A stretch of DNA of 64,000 nucleotides from an uncultured bacterium (GTDB lineage: Bacteria; Verrucomicrobiota; Kiritimatiellia; RFP12; UBA1067): positions 9,592 through 73,591 of the forward strand of contig CADAKF010000001.1 in assembly GCA_902788415.1 (NCBI GenBank), in the 5' to 3' direction. Shown in pieces: positions 4,349 through 58,507 of this stretch (positions within the stretch are counted from its first letter, which is position 1; every line of letters starts with the position of its first letter). The position numbers and the translations under genes were made by a program. A model generated the notes under the pieces. The model was not told the DNA's origin, made no database searches, and saw only the letters and a list, made by a program, of their open reading frames with translations.

Positions 4349-4404
4349 TTAGACCTTAGACTTTAGACCTTAAACTTGAAACCTGAAACTTGAAACCTGA
4401 AACT
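4349..4404. repeat. Degenerate heptamer tandem array (AGACCTT/AAACTTG type) in the gspH-gspI spacer
   Basis: ttagaccttagactttagaccttaaacttgaaacctgaaacttgaaacctgaaacta; supplies the AAGG SD of gspI. Confidence 0.7.
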
Positions 4405-5218
4405 AATCTTCTTCCCTCCCGTCTCCGTCAACGACCTTGATCCCGCCGAACTGGTCGATATTCAGCATCAGGCCGTCCTCGGGCTTCTTCCCGTCTGGAT
4501 AAATCCAGATTTTGTGCGGCTCGACAGCGCCATTCGTCTCCCAGACGACGGACACCTCCCCGTCCATGTCGTTCACACTGCCTGATTCAGCCGCGGACCC
4601 AACGCCCTCTTCGGCTTCGGACTTCGCCTTCGACTCGGCTTTCGCCTCCTTGTAGCGACTCTGGAGATAGTCGACGTTCGAGAAGACCGAGATGCGCGAA
4701 CGCGTCTGCACGTCGGTCTCGTCCGTCAGCGCCTCGTCGCCCTTCTTGACGCGGATGCGCATGCCCTTGATGACGCTCGAATCCATCGGCGAGAAGAGGA
4801 TCTCCTCAATCGTCTCGCCGCCGCCGGACGAACCGCTGGATTCGCCCTCGGAGTTGACGGCCTTTGCCTTCGGTGCGAGCTCCTTGTAGTCCATCACGTA
4901 GTAGGGCCGGGGCTCCGGACGATCCGCGTCCGCGTTCATAATCTTAGCCGCGACAACCTCGACCTTAACGCATGTCTCATCGTCGATCTTTTCATTCGAG
5001 TAATTGACGACAACCTGCTGACCCGTGACGAGCGCGACCGAGCGGGCGTGGCGGATCGCCGCGTAGACGTCGCGCGTCGCGCCCTTCACCCGCGCAGCAC
5101 CCTGTCCGGACAGGATGCTGCCGACACCAATCGACACCATCGTCGCCAGGATGGCGCAGATGACCAGAAGCTCGATCAGCGTAAAGGCGCGGCGCACCTT
5201 ATTTCTTCTTCGACTCAA
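4403..5218 (-). CDS. gspH: Type II secretion pseudopilin GspH-like
   Basis: RRAFTLIELLVICAILA prepilin N-terminus; overlaps the gspG end. Confidence 0.6.
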   Translation of the reverse strand: MSRRRNKVRRAFTLIELLVICAILATMVSIGVGSILSGQGAARVKGATRDVYAAIRHARSVALVTGQQVVVNYSNEKIDDETCVKVEVVAAKIMNADADRPEPRPYYVMDYKELAPKAKAVNSEGESSGSSGGGETIEEILFSPMDSSVIKGMRIRVKKGDEALTDETDVQTRSRISVFSNVDYLQSRYKEAKAESKAKSEAEEGVGSAAESGSVNDMDGEVSVVWETNGAVEPHKIWIYPDGKKPEDGLMLNIDQFGGIKVVDGDGREED

Positions 5219-5630
5219 TCTTGTCGGAACGGATGTCGTCTTCCGTGCCGAACTCCGTGTCCGGGCCGGCGGAGATGATGACGAAGCGCTTGCCCTTCAC
5301 CTCGATCTTGTAGTCCGTGTCCCACGGGTCGACAAGCGCGCCTTCACCTCCGTCCAGGGCCGGCTCCTCGTCGCCGTCGGCCTTCACGAGAACCGTGAGG
5401 TCGCTCGGGGGCGTCGCCTTCTTCTTGCTGAGCATCCACGTCGTCACCGCGCCCTTGATGTTGTCCACCGCCGTCTTCGCCGCCGTCTTGCGCGTCGATT
5501 CGATGTGACCCGTCACGTTGGTGACGGCGACCGCACCCAAGATGCCGAGAATGGCGACCACCACGAGAAGTTCCACAAGCGTGAAGCCGCGCTTCATCGA
5601 CTCGACAACCACATTTTCTTCTTTTTTCAT
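5199..5630 (-). CDS. gspG: Major pseudopilin GspG
   Basis: MKRGFTLVELLVVVAILGILGAVAV is the classic GspG/PulG N-terminus (true start may be the second Met at about 5597); GGEGALVDPWDTDY C-terminal region. Confidence 0.8.
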   Translation of the reverse strand: MKKEENVVVESMKRGFTLVELLVVVAILGILGAVAVTNVTGHIESTRKTAAKTAVDNIKGAVTTWMLSKKKATPPSDLTVLVKADGDEEPALDGGEGALVDPWDTDYKIEVKGKRFVIISAGPDTEFGTEDDIRSDKIESKKK

Positions 5631-13592: not shown

Positions 13593-14354
13593 TCATTTTA
13601 AGCCGCCCGTGGCAACCAGGACACTGACGGCGAAAAGAGCCGCCGTTTCCGCCCTCAGGACCGTCGGGCCAAACGAAGTCGGAACCGCGATCTCAAGAAG
13701 CGCCGCCAACTCGGCCGGCGTGAAATCCCCCTCGGGACCGATGAAGACCGAAAAATTCCGCTGTTCACCTTTACCTCTCACCTTCACCTGTGACGCCACG
13801 GCCTCGGCCAACGGTCGAGCCGGCGGCGTCACCAGCGCGCCGACGAAACAGGTCGTCTCCTTCACCATTTCCAACGCATCCCTGAAGTTGACCGCCTCGA
13901 CGATCTCCGGCAGCCACTTTGCGTCCGACTGCCGCGCCGCGTCCTCGGCAATACGCATCCAGCGCTCGCGCTTCGCCGCGCGCTCCGCCTTGGGAATGCG
14001 GACAATCGTCCGGTCGCTGATGACGGGGACGATGCGCGTGACGCCGAGCTCCGTCGCCTTCTCGACCGTCCAGTCCCAGCGCGACCCCTTCGTCACGCAG
14101 GCGAAGAGGGTCAAGGTTTGAGAGGTTTGAGAGGACTGAAAGGCTTGAGAGGTCGCCAAGAGGGGAGAAGCGGATTCCTTTCCGCTCGCAAGCGAAGCGC
14201 AAAACCTATAAACTCTCCACTTCCCCTTCCCGTCGAAGAGCTCGATCTCCTCGTCGTCTTTGGGACGAAGAACCTTCAGATGCCGCGCCGCGTCCGCCGG
14301 CAGAACCGGCGACGTCTCCTCCAACACATGCGTCTCGACTAAAAGTCTATGCAC
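13593..14354 (-). CDS. rsmE: 16S rRNA (uracil1498-N3)-methyltransferase RsmE, carrying in-frame repeat insertions
   Basis: Conserved PUA N-terminus and C-terminal [16 protein letters not shown]...[10 protein letters not shown]; insertions [14 protein letters not shown]...SQTSQT and [10 protein letters not shown] are encoded by repeat DNA. Confidence 0.8.
14164..14205 (-). repeat. Palindromic mini-element (family C) copy 1, in-frame in rsmE
   Basis: GGAGAAGCGGATTCCTTTCCGCTCGCAAGCGAAGCGCAAAACC; near-identical copies at 22141-22183 and 57336-57362. Confidence 0.8.
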
Positions 14355-21833: not shown

Positions 21834-22553
21834 TTATGAAATCATTTTCAAGACCTCTCTCCGCGCAACGGAAAGACTGTCTAGATGGAACTGATAGAAT
21901 ACACCAATTGCCCTCGCCGCGTCAAGGGGGGTCTGCGAGTTTCTTGCGTTTTCAGCACCATCCGCCAAATATTCGGCAACTTCTCGTGAAACGCGAATGC
22001 ATCGACCTTCATTCGCGCCAAACGTCCCGTTTTCAAGCGAAAACGCCGACCAACCGGCAGATTTGTCATAGTTCGCGAAGTCCGGCGCAAGCCCCGACAG
22101 CCGCAAGACCTCCAGTTCGAATCCCAACATTCCCGAGAGTGGAGAAGAGGAATCCTTTCCGCTTGCAAGCGACGCGCAAAAATCTAACCTCCGCGTCAAA
22201 GCTTCATACCACATCTCGCACTCCGAACCCATCGGGGCGAGCTCGGAGACAAGTCGGCGGAAGTATCCCGCAAGCGTAAGCGCGCGGTAGTCGCCGCGCA
22301 GGCCTTCGCGCAGCTCGAGCGGAACACAGTCTCGGAGGGCGTGCAGTTCGCCTTTCGCACGCGCGTAGTAGAGGATTTCGCAGGTATAGTTGAGGTCGTA
22401 CTGTCCGAGGAAGGCGCTTTTCGGGCGAACTGCGCCCTTCACGACCGTGGCGACCTTTCCGGATGGCGTCAGCCAGGAGACGATGTGACTTGTCCGCGAC
22501 CACGGACGCACGTCCAGGCAAACCGCCTCCGCCCGTATCGTCTCTCCCGCCAT
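21834..22553 (-). CDS. recO: DNA repair protein RecO, carrying an in-frame repeat insertion
   Basis: MAGETIRAEAVCLDVRPWSRTSHIVSWLT OB-fold N-terminus; insertion [14 protein letters not shown] from the palindromic element. Confidence 0.7.
   Translation of the reverse strand: MAGETIRAEAVCLDVRPWSRTSHIVSWLTPSGKVATVVKGAVRPKSAFLGQYDLNYTCEILYYARAKGELHALRDCVPLELREGLRGDYRALTLAGYFRRLVSELAPMGSECEMWYEALTRRLDFCASLASGKDSSSPLSGMLGFELEVLRLSGLAPDFANYDKSAGWSAFSLENGTFGANEGRCIRVSREVAEYLADGAENARNSQTPLDAARAIGVFYQFHLDSLSVARREVLKMIS
22141..22183 (-). repeat. Palindromic mini-element (family C) copy 2, in-frame in recO
   Basis: GGAGAAGAGGAATCCTTTCCGCTTGCAAGCGACGCGCAAAAATC; hairpin AAGCGGAA-TCCT-TTCCGCTT plus CGCTTGCAAGCG palindrome. 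Confidence 0.8.
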
Positions 22554-24622
22554 CAGTCGGAATCCGCGACAAGCGCGAGGAACTGCTTGCGAAGAAGCGG
22601 TAGCCGACGGCCCTGACGCTCGAGCGACCACATCACAAACTTCCACTTGCGCCCGAAGTCGTAGCGCGGCAGGACGTCCGGATCAAACGCCTCGAACCGA
22701 TCGCGCATGACACTGAGCTGCCACGCCATGGCATGCGTGCGAAACTCGAAGCCGTCCATGAAGCGTTCGGCGAGCGACGCCCGGGAAACCGCCGGATGCC
22801 GAAGCGCGTAGGCCCGGAGCGCAGCGGCAAAATGCCCGAGATAAAAGCCCGCAATCCGCGCGAGGTTGTCGTCCGTCTCTTCGAGCGACGGCCAGCCGAA
22901 GCTGCCGCGGACCGAGCAGGTCGACACCTTCTTCGGCACGACACGCTCGTTGACGATGTCATATTCGAACTCGTAGATCTCCTTGCCGACGCCGTAAAGC
23001 GGCGTCTTCGTCGCCGGATCGAACTTCTTCATCGCCATGTTCTGCGCCGCCGCATCGCCCATCAGCGCAGCCAGCGCGCGGACAACCTCCGGATCCTCCG
23101 AAGACGCGTCATCGGAATTCCGGAAGTAATTCGCCGGAATCGCCTCCATCGGCTCGCCCTCGCAGCGGCGGCGGATGTAGTGGTCTCCCGCCAGACGTCC
23201 CGCGCCAGGCCGGTGGCGCAACAGCAGATAGAGGTTGCTGAGACCGACCCCCAGCGCCCGCAAGGCGCCGATTCGCGCGAGGACATACGGACCATATCCC
23301 TTCGACCCGCGCGAGAGACGCTTTTCGACGAGCGAATCCTCGAGGGGACGGCGGTTTGTCTTGTAGACGACTTCACGGGTAGCGCCCTTGCCCAGCGGAT
23401 CGGAAGAGTCTTCCGTGCGCAGTTCGTAGACGTTCGCATATTCGATGACCTCGTCCTTTGACATCATGCCGCGCAGGTTTGAGAGCAGGAGCTCCGTCCG
23501 GTCATCCGCGCCAGGATGCAGGACCGGACGTCCGCCGACGAACGTCGCGCCGGGAAGCGCCGTCCGCCGGTCGTCGAACGCCGGAGACGCCCCCTCTCCC
23601 ATGACCGAATAGACTTCGCCCGTAATGCACATGTAGAGCGTCTCGACGAACGGCCGCGACGCCTCGTCAGCCAGCTCGGGACGCGCCAGGAGCGACTTGA
23701 AGTGCGCGGCGATCTCCGCGGTCTTCTGGATGACGCCCAGGTGTCCGGTCCTCCCGCAGACGACGTCCTCCAACAGCGCTTCGACTTCCGGGATGAGCGT
23801 TTCCAGCGCCACGCCGCGCTGCAAGCCGAAGAACTCGATCTCATGATGTCCTCGGTGCTTCGGCATCCGAATGAACGAAGCCGCCTCGCCCTCGTAGACG
23901 CCGGCAAGCTCGCGGAGCCCCGCCAGAAAGGCTTCGAGATCCGTCTCCGCCAGCGTGCAGAAGCGGACGAACTCCGCATAGGAGAGGAAGTGGACTCCGC
24001 ACGCCGAATGATAGTAGGAAAGCTTCGTTCCGATGCGCTTGCGGGAAGCCTCGAGCGCCACGCGCATCTCCTTCTCCGTCCAAGCGAGGGGCTTCACGCG
24101 CCACTCCTCGCCGCGACGCCGGTAGAATTCCAGCGTCTCCACGTTGCGTTCGGCCATGACGACGGCGGCAGGGGAAATCGCGGCCGTCTCCGTCAGCCAG
24201 CCGTCGGCCGCCACAAGATCCGCAGTGGAGATCTCGCGTTGCGAAAGCTCAAGCGTATCGCCGACGACATTAGCGCAGAGGACAGCGTGCGCCATCACGT
24301 CGCCGCGCCGTTGCGCCGGCAGCGCGGACAGCCGCCAGAACCGTCCGTCCAGAAGCGGCATGGCCGCCACTGCATGGTTGCCCGTCGACACCGTCATCAC
24401 GCGTCCCCTCGCCCGGTTGCGCAGCTGACGCTTCTCGACCAGCAGCACGCTCGGACGTTCGCCCAGCCGAGCAGCGACGCCACGCTCGAAGACAAACGTG
24501 TCCGCCCCGATGTCGTAGGCCTCGAAGACCCTCGTCCGCCCCATGAACGCCGCCGAAACCGAAGCCGGACGTTTCACGCCCTGCGCCTTGACCCGGTTCA
24601 GAAGCTGGCGGATGGGAGACAT
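22553..24622 (-). CDS. Hypothetical 689-aa protein of unknown function
   Basis: Long ORF with coding-like GC3; no motif I can name; start overlaps the recO region; lies upstream of the murU-amgK fusion. Confidence 0.5.
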   Translation of the reverse strand: MSPIRQLLNRVKAQGVKRPASVSAAFMGRTRVFEAYDIGADTFVFERGVAARLGERPSVLLVEKRQLRNRARGRVMTVSTGNHAVAAMPLLDGRFWRLSALPAQRRGDVMAHAVLCANVVGDTLELSQREISTADLVAADGWLTETAAISPAAVVMAERNVETLEFYRRRGEEWRVKPLAWTEKEMRVALEASRKRIGTKLSYYHSACGVHFLSYAEFVRFCTLAETDLEAFLAGLRELAGVYEGEAASFIRMPKHRGHHEIEFFGLQRGVALETLIPEVEALLEDVVCGRTGHLGVIQKTAEIAAHFKSLLARPELADEASRPFVETLYMCITGEVYSVMGEGASPAFDDRRTALPGATFVGGRPVLHPGADDRTELLLSNLRGMMSKDEVIEYANVYELRTEDSSDPLGKGATREVVYKTNRRPLEDSLVEKRLSRGSKGYGPYVLARIGALRALGVGLSNLYLLLRHRPGAGRLAGDHYIRRRCEGEPMEAIPANYFRNSDDASSEDPEVVRALAALMGDAAAQNMAMKKFDPATKTPLYGVGKEIYEFEYDIVNERVVPKKVSTCSVRGSFGWPSLEETDDNLARIAGFYLGHFAAALRAYALRHPAVSRASLAERFMDGFEFRTHAMAWQLSVMRDRFEAFDPDVLPRYDFGRKWKFVMWSLERQGRRLPLLRKQFLALVADSD

Positions 24623-45227: not shown

Positions 45228-46928
45228 TTACGTGTAGCGCAAGACCTCGTCAACGGTCGTATAGCCGTCAAGAATCGAGCGGATTCCGTCCTCGCGCATC
45301 GTGCGCATGCCGAGCTCGCGGGCCTTTTCGCGGATGATGAGCGTCGGCGCACGGTTGTTGACGAGCTCCCGGAGGGGCGACGACATGCGAAGGTACTCAA
45401 AGACGCCCTTGCGGCCCTTATAGCCCGTCCCATTGCAGGTCTTGCAGCCCTTGCCAAAGTAGAACGGACGCCCGCCGATCTGGTCGCGCGTCATCTCGAT
45501 GCGCTCCAGGGTCTCGTCGTCCGGCTCGTACGCCTGCTTGCATTCCTTGCAGCAGGTGCGGACGAGTCGCTGCCCGAGCACACCCTCGAGCGTCGAGGCG
45601 AGCAGATAGGGCGCGACGTTCATGTCCACGAGACGCATCACCGCGCCGGCGGCGTCGTTCGTGTGCAGGGTCGAGAAGACGAAGTGACCCGTCAGGGCCG
45701 CCTGGACAGCGATCTCGGCCGTCTCGAGGTCGCGGATCTCGCCGATCATCATGACGTCGGGGTCCTGACGCAGGAACGCGCGCAGCACCTTCGCGAAGGT
45801 ATTGCCCGCGTGTGCGTCGATCGGCACCTGGACGATGCCGTCCACGTTGTACTCGACCGGCTCCTCGGCGGTCAGGAGCTTCGTGTCGATCTGGTTGATG
45901 CGGCGGAGAACCGAGTAGAGCGTCGTTGTCTTGCCGGAGCCGGTCGGCCCCGTCACGATGAAGATGCCGTTCGGCTTCTCGATGTCCATCGTGATCTGCT
46001 CATAGACATCCTCCGGAAGCCCCACGTTCTCGAGATCGAGCGACGTCGTCGTCTGGTCGAGGATTCGCATGACGACCGACTCGCCGTGCGCCGTCGGCAG
46101 ACAGCTGACGCGAAGGTCGACCGGACGCCCCGCCACGGTGAGCGCGATGCGGCCGTCCTGCGGCACGCGGCGCTCGGCGATGTTGAGGTTTGAGAGGATC
46201 TTGATGCGCGAGATGATCGCGGGCGCCATCTTCACATCCGGCGCCTTCATCTCGTAGAGCGCGCCGTCGACGCGGTAGCGGATCTTGAAGTCATGCTCGA
46301 ACGGCTCAACGTGAATGTCAGCCGCGTGGTCGACGACGCCCTGGTAGAGGACGAGGTTCACAAACTTGACGACGGCAGACGAGTTCGCCGCGCTCTCCAT
46401 GTTGGCGATGTCGTTCGCGTTCGCGCCGACCGCCAGCGTCTCGTCGTCGGACATCCCCTCGCCGAGGGACTTGATCATGTCCGCGACGGACTCGTTCGAG
46501 TCGCCGTAGTACTGGGCGATGCGGTCCATCACGTCCTTCTCGCGGGCGAAGACAAACCGCACCTCCTTCGAGAGCGTGAACAGCATCTCGTCCGAGATGC
46601 GCGGATCGACGAGGTCGAACGTCGCAAGCGTCACGGACGAGTCGTCCGCCGCCACGGGAAAGACGTTGTACATGCGGGCCGTCGAGGCGGGAATCGCCTC
46701 GGTGACCTCGGACTCGATCGTCATCGCGCCGAGATCGATCGCCTCCGCGTCCTGATAGGCGGCCATCGCCGCAAGGAGCGAATCCTCATCGAGGACGCCG
46801 GAGTCAATGATCTGCCGGCGGACGGACTTGTTCTCGGTCTTGGCGAGCTCGGCGATGTCCTTCGCGCCGGCCTCGTCAACGTATCCGTTCTGTATCAGGA
46901 TTTGAAGTATTTGATCCATGGCAACCAC
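45228..46928 (-). CDS. GspE/PilB-family secretion ATPase (paralog 2)
   Basis: N1 domain, Walker A VTGPTGSGKTTTLYSVL, Asp/His boxes, tetracysteine CKECK...CKTCNGTGYKGRKG. Confidence 0.85.
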   Translation of the reverse strand: MVAMDQILQILIQNGYVDEAGAKDIAELAKTENKSVRRQIIDSGVLDEDSLLAAMAAYQDAEAIDLGAMTIESEVTEAIPASTARMYNVFPVAADDSSVTLATFDLVDPRISDEMLFTLSKEVRFVFAREKDVMDRIAQYYGDSNESVADMIKSLGEGMSDDETLAVGANANDIANMESAANSSAVVKFVNLVLYQGVVDHAADIHVEPFEHDFKIRYRVDGALYEMKAPDVKMAPAIISRIKILSNLNIAERRVPQDGRIALTVAGRPVDLRVSCLPTAHGESVVMRILDQTTTSLDLENVGLPEDVYEQITMDIEKPNGIFIVTGPTGSGKTTTLYSVLRRINQIDTKLLTAEEPVEYNVDGIVQVPIDAHAGNTFAKVLRAFLRQDPDVMMIGEIRDLETAEIAVQAALTGHFVFSTLHTNDAAGAVMRLVDMNVAPYLLASTLEGVLGQRLVRTCCKECKQAYEPDDETLERIEMTRDQIGGRPFYFGKGCKTCNGTGYKGRKGVFEYLRMSSPLRELVNNRAPTLIIREKARELGMRTMREDGIRSILDGYTTVDEVLRYT

Positions 46929-46959: not shown

Positions 46960-48087
46960 TTAACTGCCGTACCCCTCTTCCTTCAGCTTCTGGACGACGG
47001 ATTCAGGATCCTGCGACTTCGTGATGAGCTCCTCGTAGGAAATGAGCCCCTGCTTGTAGAGGTTGGAGAGCGACGTATCGAGCGTGAACATGCCGTACTT
47101 CGCACCGGTCTGCAGGTCGGACTTGATCATGTTCGTCTTGTTGTCGCGGATGCGCGAGCAGATCGCGTCCGTGCGCGTCATGATCTCGAACGCCGCGACA
47201 CGCCCGTGCACCTCGCCGTTCGCGTCGAGCTTCGGCAGGAGAATCTGCGAGATGACGGCCTGCAGGCCCGCCGCGAGCTGCGTGCGGATCTGCGCCTGCT
47301 GGTTCATCGGGAACGCGTCGACGATACGGTCGATCGTCTCCGCGGAGCCGGTCGTGTGCAGGGTGCCGAAAACGAGGTGTCCCGTTTCGGCCGCGGTAAT
47401 GGCCGCCGCGATCGTCTCGAGGTCGCGCATTTCGCCGACGAGAATCACGTCCGGGTCCTGGCGGAGCGCGCGGCGGATCGCCTCGGCGAAGCTCGGGACG
47501 TCGTCACCGACCTCGCGCTGTGTGACGATGGACTTCTTCGACTCGTGGTAGAATTCGATCGGGTCCTCAATCGTGATGATGTGGACGCTGCGCTCCTGGT
47601 TGATGACGTCGATCATCGAGGCGAGCGTCGTCGACTTACCGGACCCCGTCGGGCCCGTGACGAGGATCAGCCCGCGCGGCTTGAAGAGAAGCTCGCGGAC
47701 CGTGTTCGGCAGACCGATCTGCTCGAGCGTCAGGAGCCCCGAGGGAATCTGGCGGAGGACGGCGCCGTAGCGCTTCCTCTCCTTGAAGACGGACACACGG
47801 AAGCGCGTGCCGTCCGGGTGCGCGAGCGCAAAGTCCGCGCCACCGTTCGTCTCGAGCTCCTTCATGAGCTTCTCGATGTCGGGCTTGCGCTTGGGATCGT
47901 TCTCGGCGATGCCGTTCACGAACTCGGTGACGAGCGCCTGGCTCTCGTCGTCGTTCATCGGCTCCTCCGCAAGCGGCAGAAGCTCGCCGTGCACGCGCAA
48001 CAGCGGCGGCATGCGCGCGCGGATGTGGAGGTCGCTGCCCCCTTCGTCGATGATCGCCTGCAACAGCTCGTCTTTGTGGAATTGCAT
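46960..48087 (-). CDS. pilT: Twitching-motility/retraction ATPase PilT
   Basis: MQFHKDELLQAIIDEGGSDLHI..., Walker A LVTGPTGSGKST, AIRRALRQDPDVILVGEMRD; start at M114 of the track ORF, overlapping the upstream stop (TGATG). Confidence 0.9.
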   Translation of the reverse strand: MQFHKDELLQAIIDEGGSDLHIRARMPPLLRVHGELLPLAEEPMNDDESQALVTEFVNGIAENDPKRKPDIEKLMKELETNGGADFALAHPDGTRFRVSVFKERKRYGAVLRQIPSGLLTLEQIGLPNTVRELLFKPRGLILVTGPTGSGKSTTLASMIDVINQERSVHIITIEDPIEFYHESKKSIVTQREVGDDVPSFAEAIRRALRQDPDVILVGEMRDLETIAAAITAAETGHLVFGTLHTTGSAETIDRIVDAFPMNQQAQIRTQLAAGLQAVISQILLPKLDANGEVHGRVAAFEIMTRTDAICSRIRDNKTNMIKSDLQTGAKYGMFTLDTSLSNLYKQGLISYEELITKSQDPESVVQKLKEEGYGS

Positions 48088-49766
48088 CAGTTCGCGTCTC
48101 CCATGGTGACTCTCAGGACCTCGGCGAGGGACGTCATCCCGCTCGCCACCTTCAGCATGCCGTCTTCGCGCAGCGTCCGCATGCCCATCTCGCGGGCACG
48201 CTGCCGGAGCAAGGTCGCCGGCGCGTGGTCGAAGATGAGCCGCTGGATCGTATCGTCGACCTTGAAGATCTCGAAGATGCCCTTCCGGCCCTTGTAGCCG
48301 GTCTTGCCGCACCGGTCGCAGCCCGCGCCGTGGTACATCGTGTCGGGCACGGTCGCGTTCGTCCCGCTCGCAAGGCCCGTCAGCATCCTGATCTCGCGCT
48401 CGGTCGGCGTGTAGCTCGTCTTGCACGTCTCGCAGATGGCGCGCACGAGACGCTGGGCCATCGCCGCGCGGAGCGCGGAGGCCACGAGGAATGGTTTGAC
48501 GCCGATGTCGAGGAGTCGCGTGACGGCGGACGGCGCATCGTTCGTGTGCAGCGTCGAGAAGACGAGGTGGCCCGTGAGGGCCGCCTCCATCGCGATGTCG
48601 GCCGTCTCCGCGTCGCGGATCTCGCCGATCATCACAATGTTCGGGGCCTGGCGCAGGATCGAGCGGAGCGCCGCCGAGAAGTCGAGGCCGACGTCCTTGT
48701 TGACCTGCACCTGGTTGATGCCGCTCATCTGGTATTCGACCGGATCCTCGACCGTGATGAGCTTCTTGTCGGGCGTGTTAATCTGACCAAGACAGGCATA
48801 GAGCGTCGTCGTCTTGCCCGAACCGGTCGGCCCCGTCACGAGCACCACGCCGTCGGGGAGCTTGATGAGCTTTTCGAACGTCGTCTGGTCGTCGGAGAGA
48901 AAGCCAAGCTGCGGCAGGCCGAGCGAAAGGTTCGACTTGTCAAGGATTCGCATGACGATCGACTCGCCGTGATTCGTCGGCACCGACGAGACGCGCAGGT
49001 CGAGATCGCGCCCGCCGACCGTAATCTGGATGCGGCCGTCCTGCGGAATGCGCTTCTCGGAGATCTTCATCTTCGACATGATCTTGAAGCGCGAGAGAAT
49101 CGCGCCCTGCAGACGCTTCGGCGGCGAGTCCATCTTGCGGAGCGCGCCGTCGATGCGGTAGCGGACGCGAAACTCCTTCTCCATCGGCTCGATGTGGATG
49201 TCGGACGCCTTCATCTTGATCGCCGTGGTGATGATCATGTTGGCGAGCTTGATGACCGCGCCGTCGTCGCCCACGGCGGCGGCGTCGCCCAGACCCTCCT
49301 CGTCGCGCGTCGAGACGGTGGACTCCTCCTCGGACGGATAGAGCTTCGCCATCGCGGCCTTCACCTCGGCGAGAGGCGACAGGACCGTCTGGACGTCTTT
49401 CCCGGAAAGGACATAGCGGAGCGAGTCAACCGCGTCATAGCCCATCGGATCGATGAGCGCCACCGTAACGGAGCTCTCGTCCGCCACGACCGGGACGACG
49501 CCGTACTTCTTGGCGATATCAGCCGAAATCGCCTTCGCCGCCTCCTCGTTGATGGCAGAGGCATCGAGATGGCAGTACTTGAGGCCGAACTGGTCGGCAA
49601 TCGTGCCAAGAACCGTGTCCTCGTCCAGTGCGCCGCCCGCCACCAGGACGTCGAGCGTCGTCTCGTTCTCCGCCTTCATCGAAGACGCGGCGGTCTGAAC
49701 CTGCTCCGCGGTCAGATACCCGCGCTCGGTCAGAAGCTGAAGGACATACTCGTCGTTACTTGTCAT
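48087..49766 (-). CDS. GspE/PilB-family secretion/pilus-assembly ATPase (paralog 1)
   Basis: Walker A VTGPTGSGKTTTLYACL; tetracysteine CETCK...CDRCGKTGYKGRKG; GSPII N-domain. Confidence 0.85.
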   Translation of the reverse strand: MTSNDEYVLQLLTERGYLTAEQVQTAASSMKAENETTLDVLVAGGALDEDTVLGTIADQFGLKYCHLDASAINEEAAKAISADIAKKYGVVPVVADESSVTVALIDPMGYDAVDSLRYVLSGKDVQTVLSPLAEVKAAMAKLYPSEEESTVSTRDEEGLGDAAAVGDDGAVIKLANMIITTAIKMKASDIHIEPMEKEFRVRYRIDGALRKMDSPPKRLQGAILSRFKIMSKMKISEKRIPQDGRIQITVGGRDLDLRVSSVPTNHGESIVMRILDKSNLSLGLPQLGFLSDDQTTFEKLIKLPDGVVLVTGPTGSGKTTTLYACLGQINTPDKKLITVEDPVEYQMSGINQVQVNKDVGLDFSAALRSILRQAPNIVMIGEIRDAETADIAMEAALTGHLVFSTLHTNDAPSAVTRLLDIGVKPFLVASALRAAMAQRLVRAICETCKTSYTPTEREIRMLTGLASGTNATVPDTMYHGAGCDRCGKTGYKGRKGIFEIFKVDDTIQRLIFDHAPATLLRQRAREMGMRTLREDGMLKVASGMTSLAEVLRVTMGDAN

Positions 49767-56537: not shown

Positions 56538-57263
56538 TTAGGCGAAGCCGAGAACGTCCCGCATGGTGTAAACGCCAGGCCTCTGCCCCTTCGCCCACTT
56601 GAGCGCCTTAAGCGCCCCCGCCGCGAATGCCTCGCGACCCTGCGCCTTGTGCGTCAACTCCACGCGCTCGACATCACCCGCGAACATGACGGTATGGTCC
56701 CCAACGACCGAACCGCCGCGAAGCGCATGGATTGCGATCTCTCCGACCGGACGCTCCCCGATGTCGCCCCTCCTGCCATAGGTGAACTCGTCCTTGACGC
56801 CGCGACCCGCCGCGGCGGACTTCGCCAGCATCAAGGCCGTGCCGCTCGGCGCGTCCTTCTTGTGCCTGTGGTGCATCTCCGTGACTTCGATGTCGTATTC
56901 GGGCCCGAGCACCTGCGCCGTCTTCTTCACGAGCTCGAGGAGCAGATTGACGCCCAGCGAATAGTTGCCGCTCTGCACGATCGGGATTTTCTTCGCCGCG
57001 GCGTCGACGACCTTCTGCTCGTCCGCCGTGAGGCCCGTTGTCCCGATGACGTACGCAAGCCCCTTTGCCGCGGCCTTCTCGACCGACGCCGGCACCGCAA
57101 CATGATAGGAGAAGTCAATGACGCCCTCCACGTCGTCCGCCCAGGCCTTGTCGTAGCCTTCGGCGACGTCCACCTTCGAGACGACCTCGAGGTCCGTGCC
57201 CTCGGCGAGCGCACACAGCATCTTCCCCATGCGCCCCGCGGCGCCCACAATTGCTATCTTCAT
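56538..57263 (-). CDS. dapB: 4-hydroxy-tetrahydrodipicolinate reductase
   Basis: MKIAIVGAAGRMGK; EMHHRHKKDAPSGTA. Confidence 0.9.
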   Translation of the reverse strand: MKIAIVGAAGRMGKMLCALAEGTDLEVVSKVDVAEGYDKAWADDVEGVIDFSYHVAVPASVEKAAAKGLAYVIGTTGLTADEQKVVDAAAKKIPIVQSGNYSLGVNLLLELVKKTAQVLGPEYDIEVTEMHHRHKKDAPSGTALMLAKSAAAGRGVKDEFTYGRRGDIGERPVGEIAIHALRGGSVVGDHTVMFAGDVERVELTHKAQGREAFAAGALKALKWAKGQRPGVYTMRDVLGFA

Positions 57264-58507
57264 ATCAGTTCTCCTATTAAGATTTGCGGATGCGCCTCGG
57301 TAATCCTCACTTGGACCAAGCCCCCGGGACACAGTGGAGAAGCGGAATCCTTTCCGCTTCCGTTACAATCCCACACCACAATCCTGTTTCCGCCGTCACG
57401 CCCGGACCACCGCGCCTTGTTGCGCTTCGACGGACCCTCCACCATCACCTCGCGCACCGTCCCGACGAGCCGGTCGTTACGCGCCTGACCGCGGCGCTCC
57501 TGGTCCGCGAGCAGCACCTGGTCGCGGCGCTCCTTCTCCGCCTTGGTCACGTCGTCCGGCAACGCTGCGCTACGCGTGCCCGGACGCGGCGAATACTTGA
57601 AGATGAAGGCATTGTCAAACCCTGCCTCGTCCATCAGCATGCGGGTCTGTTCAAAATCCTCTTCGGTCTCGCCCGGATAGCCGACGATCACGTCCGTCGT
57701 CACCGAGAACTCCGGATCAAACGCATGCAGCTTCGCGACGGCCGCGAGATACTCCGCCCGCGTGTAGCGCCGTCCCATTTCCTTGAGGACGCGGTCGCTC
57801 CCCGACTGCACCGGAAGGTGCAGGTGGCGGCAGACCTTCGGACAATCCCGGTACACGGCCACAAGCTCGTCCGTGCAGCCGCCCGGATGCGCGCTCGTGA
57901 AGCGGATTCGCTCAATGCCGTCGATCTCCTGGATGCGCCGGAGCAACTGAGGAAATCCCCTGTAGCGAAGGACGCTCTGGCCAAGCAGCGTCACCTCCTT
58001 CACACCGCGCTCCGCAAGGCATTCGACCTCGCGCACGATGTCATCCGCCGGACGCGAATACTCGTGTCCCCGCACCGTCGGCACGATGCAGTAGCTGCAG
58101 CAGTTGTCGCAGCCCGTCATCACCGTCACAAAGGCCTGAAAGGCGGTTCCTGCATGCGCGGAAAGAGGGTCTCCGCCCTTGATGTAGGGAATCTTGAGAA
58201 GCTCGCCAGGCGCAACCGCGAACGCCAGCCGCGGAAGCTTCTTGAAAAGCTCCGGACCGAGCCGCTTCACCGCACAGCCCATCATGCCGGTGATCTTGCC
58301 GTCCGCAATCAGGTTCCCCGCCTTGCCGATCGCCTTCTCCTCCGCCTTCTGCCGCACGGTGCAGCTGTTGACGATGACAAGCTCGGCCTCTTTCTCGCTC
58401 GCCGCCTTCTCATGCCCGGCTTCAATCAGCAGCGCCTCGACCGCTTCCGAGTCGCGGACGTTCATCTGGCAGCCGTAGGTATGGATCAGGAATTTCATCT
58501 TGCACAA
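57260..58507 (-). CDS. miaB: tRNA methylthiotransferase MiaB (radical SAM MTTase with TRAM domain), carrying an in-frame repeat insertion
   Basis: MKFLIHTYGCQMN; CDNCCSYC radical-SAM motif; TRAM C-terminus; insertion NGSGKDSASPL from the palindromic element. Confidence 0.85.
   Translation of the reverse strand: MCKMKFLIHTYGCQMNVRDSEAVEALLIEAGHEKAASEKEAELVIVNSCTVRQKAEEKAIGKAGNLIADGKITGMMGCAVKRLGPELFKKLPRLAFAVAPGELLKIPYIKGGDPLSAHAGTAFQAFVTVMTGCDNCCSYCIVPTVRGHEYSRPADDIVREVECLAERGVKEVTLLGQSVLRYRGFPQLLRRIQEIDGIERIRFTSAHPGGCTDELVAVYRDCPKVCRHLHLPVQSGSDRVLKEMGRRYTRAEYLAAVAKLHAFDPEFSVTTDVIVGYPGETEEDFEQTRMLMDEAGFDNAFIFKYSPRPGTRSAALPDDVTKAEKERRDQVLLADQERRGQARNDRLVGTVREVMVEGPSKRNKARWSGRDGGNRIVVWDCNGSGKDSASPLCPGGLVQVRITEAHPQILIGELI
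57336..57362 (-). repeat. Palindromic mini-element (family C) copy 3 (truncated), in-frame in miaB
   Basis: GGAGAAGCGGAATCCTTTCCGCTTCCG. Confidence 0.75.

Follow-up and report, generated by a model that had tools for sequence, protein, structure and literature searches.

Small hairpin-forming dispersed repeats inside protein-coding genes of gut Kiritimatiellia

The DNA analysed here, called the window, is a 64-kb stretch (64,000 nucleotides) from an uncultured bacterium of the Kiritimatiellia (assembly GCA_902788415.1, contig CADAKF010000001.1, positions 9,592 to 73,591). It is a run of housekeeping genes, nearly all of them on the minus strand. The GC skew is negative throughout the window, and therefore the minus strand is probably the leading strand. 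Three of the genes, rsmE, recO and miaB, carry in frame a copy of a very small repeat whose 23-nt core reads AGCGGAAAGGAWTCCKCTTCTCC on the gene strand (Table 1). The pattern GGAGAAGCGGAATCCTTTCCGCT matched the hairpin units of rsmE and recO with one mismatch each and miaB at 57336-57358 with none. In 100 dinucleotide shuffles of the window it was not matched at all, giving an expectation of zero against the three copies observed. The coordinates and in-frame residence of the three copies, both given in a first-pass annotation of this DNA, were thus confirmed, with at most one mismatch in the core and a likeness beyond chance. A variant-tolerant pattern with up to three substitutions gave one chance-level match in the window and no convincing further copy. 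A longer stretch, TCCTTTCCGCTYGCAAGCGAMGCGCAAAA, is common only to the rsmE and recO copies (14176-14204 and 22153-22181).

Table 1. Repeat units, their extensions and their host genes in the window
Feature	Position	Strand	Description
Hairpin unit and 3' tag, rsmE	14164..14186	-	AGCGGAAAGGAATCCGCTTCTCC (gene strand); encodes SGKESASP; an A in the right arm cuts the stem to 6 bp
18-nt 5' extension, rsmE	14187..14204	-	TTTTGCGCTTCGCTTGCG (gene strand); encodes FCASLA; forms with the left arm the second palindrome CGCTTGCGAGCG
Tandem 9-nt repeats (4 units), rsmE	14115..14150	-	GGTTTGAGA-like, directly 3' of the element; low-complexity (TSQ)n, variable in orthologues
Host gene rsmE (16S rRNA m3U methyltransferase family)	13593..14354	-	Element is aa 51-65, at the end of the N-terminal PUA-like domain and in the linker
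Hairpin unit and tag, recO	22141..22163	-	AGCGGAAAGGATTCCTCTTCTCC; encodes SGKDSSSP; G-to-T breaks the right arm
18-nt 5' extension, recO	22164..22181	-	TTTTGCGCGTCGCTTGCA; encodes FCASLA
Host gene recO	21834..22553	-	239-aa form agrees with called orthologues; element is aa 125-139, a helix end and the loop before the next helix
Intact short-form unit, miaB	57336..57360	-	GAAGCGGAA-AGGA-TTCCGCTTC, then TCC; 9-bp stem; encodes SGKDSASP
Host gene miaB (tRNA methylthiotransferase)	57260..58498	-	Element in a loop of the C-terminal TRAM domain

All three copies lie within minus-strand open reading frames (ORFs) in the identical reading frame. Their shared peptide is SGK(D/E)S(A/S)SP; it is preceded by FCASLA in rsmE and recO only, and miaB gives NGSGKDSASPL. 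The host ORFs are uninterrupted, and their alignments with solved homologues extend over the full length. The RsmE ORF (253 aa) matches solved RsmE proteins with E = 1e-27 and the MiaB ORF (57260-58507) matches MiaB with E = 6e-86. The PDB match of the RecO ORF is weak, and its orthologues carry Pfam RecO_N and RecO_C. The mechanical recO ORF (21834-22646, 270 aa) overruns the start, which orthologues and gene calls place at 22553 (239 aa). Likewise, the mechanical ORF 56538-57332 overruns its start, and DapB begins with MKIAIVGAAG right at the miaB stop. The hosts had been described as essential, which does not agree with established knowledge: rsmE, recO and miaB are non-essential in E. coli and model bacteria. 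An Rfam scan of the window reported only two tRNAs at gathering score, neither matching the element. A BLAST search of plasmid and phage collections returned nothing similar to it, and a scan of viral contigs gave two chance matches with non-complementary stems. It is extremely improbable that the repeat arose as an artefact of assembly or sequencing, or that it is a laboratory sequence. We found no point in support of such an origin. Against it, the same copies are present in independent ENA, Logan and NCBI assemblies, 14 RecO variants occur in up to 39 contigs each, hundreds of diverged orthologues have diverged versions, and there is no plasmid or phage match.

In the basic unit, a 9-bp stem, GAAGCGGNN/NNCCGCTTC, closes a 4-nt loop, RGGA, and is followed on the 3' side by an unpaired TCYCC tag; in the window unit the tail reads TCTCC if counted from the last stem bases. 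The tags seen on the gene strand are TCTCC, TCCCC or TCCTC, corresponding to GGAGA, GGGGA or GAGGA on the complementary strand. Of the three window copies, that of miaB alone is intact, with a DNA fold of -10.3 kcal/mol (z = -4.9). The rsmE copy, reduced to a 6-bp stem, and the recO copy, with an internal mismatch, fold no better than shuffles (z = -0.5 and +0.1, respectively). The perfect hairpin of the first-pass annotation therefore holds for the 9-bp stem of miaB but not for the other two, and the consensus given there was idealised, because the rsmE copy has GGATTCC and the recO copy AAGAGG, both changes being in the stem. The unit measures 23-25 nt and the long form about 41-43 nt, and they encode 7-14 aa. 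In the long form, TTTTGCGCTTCGCTTGCR stands 5' of the unit and creates a second palindrome, CGCTTGCAAGCG, which overlaps the left arm, as had been noticed before. The long form with its 18-nt extension is a unit in its own right, because it is also present in the M20 peptidase gene of another metagenome-assembled genome (MAG) (L006; SCASLTSGKDSASPF). The miaB copy had been regarded as truncated. Instead, most relatives have the hairpin plus tag (23-25 nt) as the basic unit, which is extended in the 42-nt form.

The exact core was found in six contigs of a genome collection, all from Kiritimatiellia or 'Verrucomicrobia' MAGs, with three of the contigs belonging to one MAG. Close orthologues of the window genes came from pig-gut and similar metagenomes, which suggests a gut member of the Kiritimatiellia as the source of the window. 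In relatives the core occurs in the RibF gene, where it is read RKGFRFS, and in a family-5 solute-binding protein gene, where it is read AERIPLL. In a carboxylase linker before the biotinyl domain there are two inverted units, read GEAESLPL and SGKDSASP. In a Ser/Thr kinase gene (L005) the core lies on the antisense strand and is read RSGILSA, and the AraC-type gene of L071 holds a further antisense unit. At one site (L001), probably intergenic, the unit stands beside a second hairpin. Altogether there are at least nine distinct host genes against this one probably intergenic site, in a survey of contigs and partial genomes. No dimers occur in the window; in relatives they are found in L003 (two inverted units 26 nt apart), L001 (two units 3 nt apart) and L028 (two units within about 50 nt). 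The inverted layout of the biotinyl-linker units (L003, 3293-3364) is also the one needed by intragenic invertible segments.

The relatives' copies use four reading frames and both orientations. Therefore, a peptide-level explanation is excluded, and the same observation argues against an mRNA-level one; the element is a DNA-level repeat, not a peptide motif. The frame shared by the three window copies had been correctly recorded, but in view of the four frames and both strands in relatives it is a coincidence of the window. The peptide-level explanation would take (F)CASLASGK[DE]SxSPL as a selected, convergent protein motif, such as a modification or docking site. The common frame and the near-identical peptides of the window copies are in its favour. 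However, the encoded peptide follows the stem variant (KDS, QET, RET or EDA), the region is missing in many close orthologues, and the same DNA is read elsewhere in other frames. This explanation is very improbable. It is also quite unlikely that the hairpin acts in the mRNA, by ribosome pausing or transcript protection, and is selected for that action. The three window copies do share their orientation relative to transcription, and many repetitive extragenic palindromic sequences (REPs) are thought to act as RNA (PMC3733652). Nevertheless, the units of the kinase and AraC-type genes are antisense, both orientations are present in one gene (L003), Rfam has no match, the fold has been lost in two of the three window copies, and close orthologues exist without the unit.

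The hairpin is the conserved feature of the element. Its stem top occurs in three variants with compensatory changes, AA/TT, TC/GA and CG/CG. The peptide variants SGQETASP, SGRETASP and SGEDAASP were found among orthologues. On the assumption of an unchanged loop, they predicted the stems GCGGTC/GACCGC and GCGGCG/CGCCGC, and both were then confirmed in the DNA (L010, AGCGGCGAGGACGCCGCT; L071 and L075, AGCGGTCAGGAGACCGCT). Among 15 distinct copies, 13 cells of the two stem-top pairs are changed on both sides, and overall 90% of the cells pair against 33-53% when the partners are slid. The observed covariation was reached in 0 of 500 shuffles, which is to be read as support and not as a probability, since the copies are mutually related. 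In a metagenome scan with the stem-top bases left free, 26 of 56 matches were complementary against about 3.5 expected; most of these matches are from unrelated organisms, often AT-rich, many are terminator-like, and only L028 had the AA/TT unit. A strict coupling between stem variant and tag, as in guide-target pairing, was considered and stands as no more than a lead. AA/TT with TCTCC and most TC/GA with TCCCC fit such a rule, and it fails in L072 and in the CG/CG copies.

The history of the copies was followed in alignments of orthologues. In miaB, proteins at least 90% identical include some without the 21-nt hairpin. Within this cluster the loop reads WDCNGSGKDSASPLCPGGLVQV in the window, WEKKGSEGLGSLVKV in P0135 and P0146, and WDVCGDGNAAAPAVGDVVKV in P0143, and P0148 has a tandem GLEGLEGSEGLGG expansion in it. 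In the DNA alignment the 21-nt gap of a pig-gut allele corresponds exactly to AAGCGGAAAGGATTCCGCTTC, and the remaining loop differs too. Compared with the solved Bacteroides MiaB, the element is a 7-aa insertion in a TRAM-domain loop. These comparisons indicate that the miaB copy is a recent gain within a hypervariable loop. The TRAM loop itself (window 57330-57375; P0135, P0143 and P0148) shows four unrelated sequences at 90% identity or more, one of them a tandem GLEGLEGSEGLGGLGG expansion. The 90% MiaB protein cluster also holds hundreds of 241-aa DapB sequences, which is a database clustering oddity.

The RecO alignment comprised 121 sequences. The site is empty in 53 of them, with a 14-aa segment such as RRLEDIRPKTEDLV, and filled in 47; the remainder are degenerate or odd. 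Filled and empty sequences are interleaved in similarity, and their identity outside the segment is 84% between filled and empty and 82% among filled ones. Against a truly empty allele (L076), 14 element codons stand in place of about 8. Two units are present in P0004, P0028 and P0037. The recO gene of L011 retains only TGCGCTTCG|TCTCC, the remnant expected of a deletion from one CGCTTC direct repeat to the other. The RecO copy is polymorphic in the window's own species: 7 of 14 protein variants have the D of the loop changed to A. In the AlphaFold model of RecO (mean pLDDT 60), the element forms the end of helix 111-129 and loop 130-137.

Among the RsmE orthologues there are the long form, a short form (YSYSSGQETASPL) that lacks the extension, a half-deleted form and about a dozen alleles without the hairpin. 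The hairpin-less alleles were considered as naive sites, and this was rejected. One of them, L070, keeps TTCCGCTCCTCC, that is, the right arm and the tag, and is therefore a deletion derivative. A distant RsmE group has FKVQGSRFKDESLIP as the apparent original strand, and the element stands in place of a strand-linker segment. In the RsmE model the pLDDT of the N-terminal half falls below 50 in a single stretch, which lies within the element. At the site of the window's 9-nt repeats, RsmE orthologues carry other oligo-repeats (SNNRTIEQSNNS, TLNFKPSTLN) in differing copy number (P0210, P0252); the RsmE domain linker is a low-complexity repeat tract in this clade. Taken together, the copies are tolerated in a TRAM loop, between two RecO helices and in a low-confidence RsmE stretch. 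The peptide had been proposed to be an insertion, and the alignments with orthologues support this in so far as it is not ancestral and is present or absent among sister sequences of RecO and MiaB. The insertion is not a clean one, however, as native codons are replaced in RecO and a strand-linker segment in RsmE.

RibF behaves differently in that its 121 sequences (orthologues P0269-P0388) have essentially one length at the element site, with no net length change. The peptide is KRKGFRFS in 23 sequences (the AA/TT variant in the RibF frame), KRSGDRFP in 10 (TC/GA) and KRRGRRF(P/S) in 6 (CG/CG). In another 56 sequences a SSVSRLPSS-like peptide of the same length, known from protein alone, takes the same position; it may be one more state of the unit, perhaps an inverted or a decayed one. 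At the corresponding place E. coli RibF presumably reads KRLGVKF, which resembles KRKGFRF. If this motif is right, the RibF unit sits in native sequence space and there was no net insertion.

A nested second element of about 43-46 nt (ATATC..GCGAAGC..GCGAAGC..CGCTA..GGGGT) was observed inside the hairpin unit at L069 2257-2302 (rsmE) and L072 1172-1214 (recO). The two copies are about 70% identical after one is reverse-complemented, and each sits immediately behind AAGC in a hairpin arm, where one G is missing. In protein, the nested element appears as PRIAPASQLASLGGY (four RsmE orthologues) or ISTGEATAKRPLG (two RecO orthologues). The common position suggests a site-specific inserter with the hairpin as its target.

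Copies within a genome tend to carry the same variant. In the window, recO, rsmE and miaB all have AA/TT with TCTCC, and one MAG (MAG256) has this combination at four units. On the L075 contig, both recO and rsmE have the TC/GA stem, the AGGA loop and the TCCCC tag, which amounts to five identical differences from the window at each of the two loci. Both genomes have the long form at both sites, and therefore recO and rsmE were already filled in the common ancestor. L071 has the TCCCC tag at both units. The RibF orthologues, with three stem variants at one fixed position, represent a third locus. Coordinated switching is suggested by three loci but with only two genomes paired. Of 41 RecO cases, 18 share their variant with the nearest neighbour, whereas permutation gives 9.3, and therefore the variants are only loosely tied to phylogeny. 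Identities and nearest-neighbour concordance were used for this purpose, and a parsimony count of RecO variant switches on a neighbour-joining tree was set aside because the tree was too star-like. The result suggests that copies may be homogenised within genomes by conversion or re-templating. Independent repeated insertion at identical positions seems less likely.

The same variants could also be read as lineage 'dialects' arising in place. The hairpin would then be a functional DNA signal, an uptake sequence or the binding site of a host protein, spread and kept by biased recombination or selection. This explanation accounts for genome-specific variants that switch at orthologous sites and for RibF without length change, and if the presumed KRLGVKF likeness holds, some copies could come from conversion of similar sequence. 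We nevertheless consider it unlikely. The density of about one copy per 21 kb is far under that of known uptake sequences, old copies decay in both stem and loop, half of the RecO protein variants in the window's own species differ by the D/A polymorphism, the gains in MiaB and RecO change the length, and two variants are found together in L001. DNA uptake sequences are non-palindromic and occur about once per kb, in contrast to the palindromic element with 3 copies per 64 kb.

We consider it probable, on the whole, that these are very small (23-42 nt) hairpin dispersed repeats of gut Kiritimatiellia, resembling REPs, small Rickettsia palindromic elements (RPEs) and small dispersed repeats (SDRs), which are mobile and homogenised. 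The element is a dispersed hairpin repeat with sub-families, and it gains new chromosomal places and is lost at defined sites. Its copies survive where the 7-14 added residues hit a tolerant loop or linker in frame; the AA/TT form has a stop codon in none of the six frames. Their later fates are decay, duplication, partial loss through slippage and invasion by other small inserts. Spread and homogenisation may proceed with the repeat as single-stranded hairpin DNA, for which we propose two routes. In the first, a trans-acting enzyme specific for hairpin and tag would move the unit; the obvious candidate is an HUH tyrosine transposase, either RAYT or IS200/IS605 in type, the transposition mechanism being inferred. 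In the second, short-patch gene conversion among the copies would account for the in-place switches. A single variant per genome, even at sites filled before the divergence, would thereby be explained. The host proteins would be passengers, and the encoded peptide would have no function of its own. A more specific version is that resident copies are rewritten in place to the active variant of the genome by hairpin-guided, templated short-patch replacement, which could overwrite similar native coding sequence at constant length, as in RibF. We put this forward tentatively, as a possibility with the odds somewhat against it; if true, orthologous recO, rsmE and ribF copies would switch 'dialect' together.

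Several observations weigh against mobile, homogenised repeats. Compared with empty orthologues, all three window copies depart from a clean insertion, and no target-site duplication was seen at any of the sites compared. The constant length of RibF appears to fit replacement or conversion better than cut-and-paste. The old copies of rsmE and recO are without hairpin fold, and therefore any agent maintaining the structure does not act uniformly. L001 carries two different variants side by side. The copy number looks low, with 3 copies per 64 kb and 3 scan matches (4 units) in MAG256. Weaker points come from the search for an enzyme. The ten window ORFs searched with Pfam contain housekeeping domains only and no transposase, and a search of about 540 kb, covering less than one tenth of any one genome, gave no match to E. 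coli RayT (best E-value 0.9).

Among known systems, the tagged REPs are the most similar. These are 20-40-nt stem-loops with a terminal GTAG or CGTC tag, complementary stem sub-families, dimers and some intragenic copies (Di Nocera et al. 2013, PMC3733652). Their stems are 5-13 bp with short loops (PMC3733652). REP copies number tens to thousands per genome and are mostly extragenic, and REPs flank a cognate RAYT (Y1 HUH transposase) gene. Opitutus terrae, of the PVC superphylum, has the most intragenic REPs, about 70 entries with 7-8 aa per unit (e.g. GTGVPPV and PGSASPA), many of them in repair and RNA-modification genes, and the small RPE-4 and RPE-6 are counted among the CGTC REPs (PMC3733652). 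The Kiritimatiellia element is likewise a 20-40-nt stem-loop with an unpaired tag at one end, compensatory sub-families, single units and dimers. As in Opitutus terrae, its intragenic units encode 7-8 aa each in housekeeping proteins, with DNA-repair and RNA-modification genes prominent, and the hosts are PVC bacteria. On the other hand, its tag is GGAGA, GGGGA or GAGGA rather than GTAG or CGTC, the copies seen are nearly all intragenic, the copy number appears low, and the 18-nt extension forms a second palindrome. Insertion sequence (IS) elements are known to insert into REPs, and gene conversion of REPs is a long-standing proposal; the nested element and the homogenisation observed here are parallels of these two features.

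The first-pass annotation had compared the element with RPEs, and the comparison stands as far as palindromic repeats lying in frame in unrelated genes without inactivating them are concerned. The element is probably not a member of the RPE families, however, and no sequence relation to any of them is known. It is not an RPE-1, which is about 100-150 nt long and encodes about 30-50 aa, compared with 23-42 nt and 7-14 aa. The host lineage and lifestyle are also different, and several Kiritimatiellia copies replace native residues and do not merely add to them. The SDRs of heterocystous cyanobacteria, reportedly described by Elhai et al. in 2008, are about 20-27 nt long, proposed to be mobile, located inside genes and nested in other repeats. 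They differ in sequence and phylum, and SDRs are not known to have a hairpin-plus-tag anatomy or to switch variants at orthologous sites. IS200/IS605 and RAYT systems resemble the element by anatomy only, as they have a hairpin with a short flanking motif as the unit and no target duplication. Their insertion beside a fixed short sequence is matched by the nested element, which follows AAGC in two genes. No transposase gene was found with the element in the ten window ORFs and about 540 kb; these systems are a mechanistic analogue only. Miniature inverted-repeat transposable elements differ in that the sole inverted repeats of the element are its hairpin arms, with no flanking duplication and no parent IS seen. 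The element had been thought undescribed for this kind of genome. Intragenic REPs of this size are already known from Opitutus terrae, but no description of such repeats in Kiritimatiellia was found in the literature. The element is a new sequence family of an already known element type, matching the tagged REPs except for the tag, the apparent intragenic bias and the RAYT link, which is putative here.

The window also has other short dispersed repeats that are apparently intergenic, at 18282-18328/37461-37507, 34024-34067/62482-62525, 34666-34703/46931-46968/55182-55219 and 5646-5679/18619-18652. One pair among them is 47 nt and 87% complementary, and several others are runs of 7-9-nt oligomers of the CCGCTTAA, GCTAAC and GACTTTAGAC types, resembling the rsmE oligo-repeat tracts. 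Two paralogous genes of about 560 aa, at 45228-46928 and 48087-49766, are 2883 nt apart and 70-79% identical over several stretches including the P-loop region; they probably encode ATPases of a secretion system or pilus. At 4403-5630 there are pseudopilin-like genes whose products have KRGFTLIELLVV N-termini.

Many bacteria have small palindromic repeats, and how these move and stay alike is still debated, with RAYT transposition on one side and gene conversion on the other. In the gut Kiritimatiellia, the copies lie at fixed, alignable positions in conserved genes with hundreds of gut-metagenome orthologues, and protein alignments show all states, namely empty, filled, variant-switched, duplicated, half-deleted and with a nested insert. 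Therefore, the dynamics of a very small repeat can be measured in natural populations. This provides a route to test whether homogenisation happens in place, and the coordinated variant switching at orthologous intragenic sites is the most interesting lead. For annotation, such low-confidence loops of 7-14 residues in Kiritimatiellia proteins are to be read as repeat-derived and without functional meaning.

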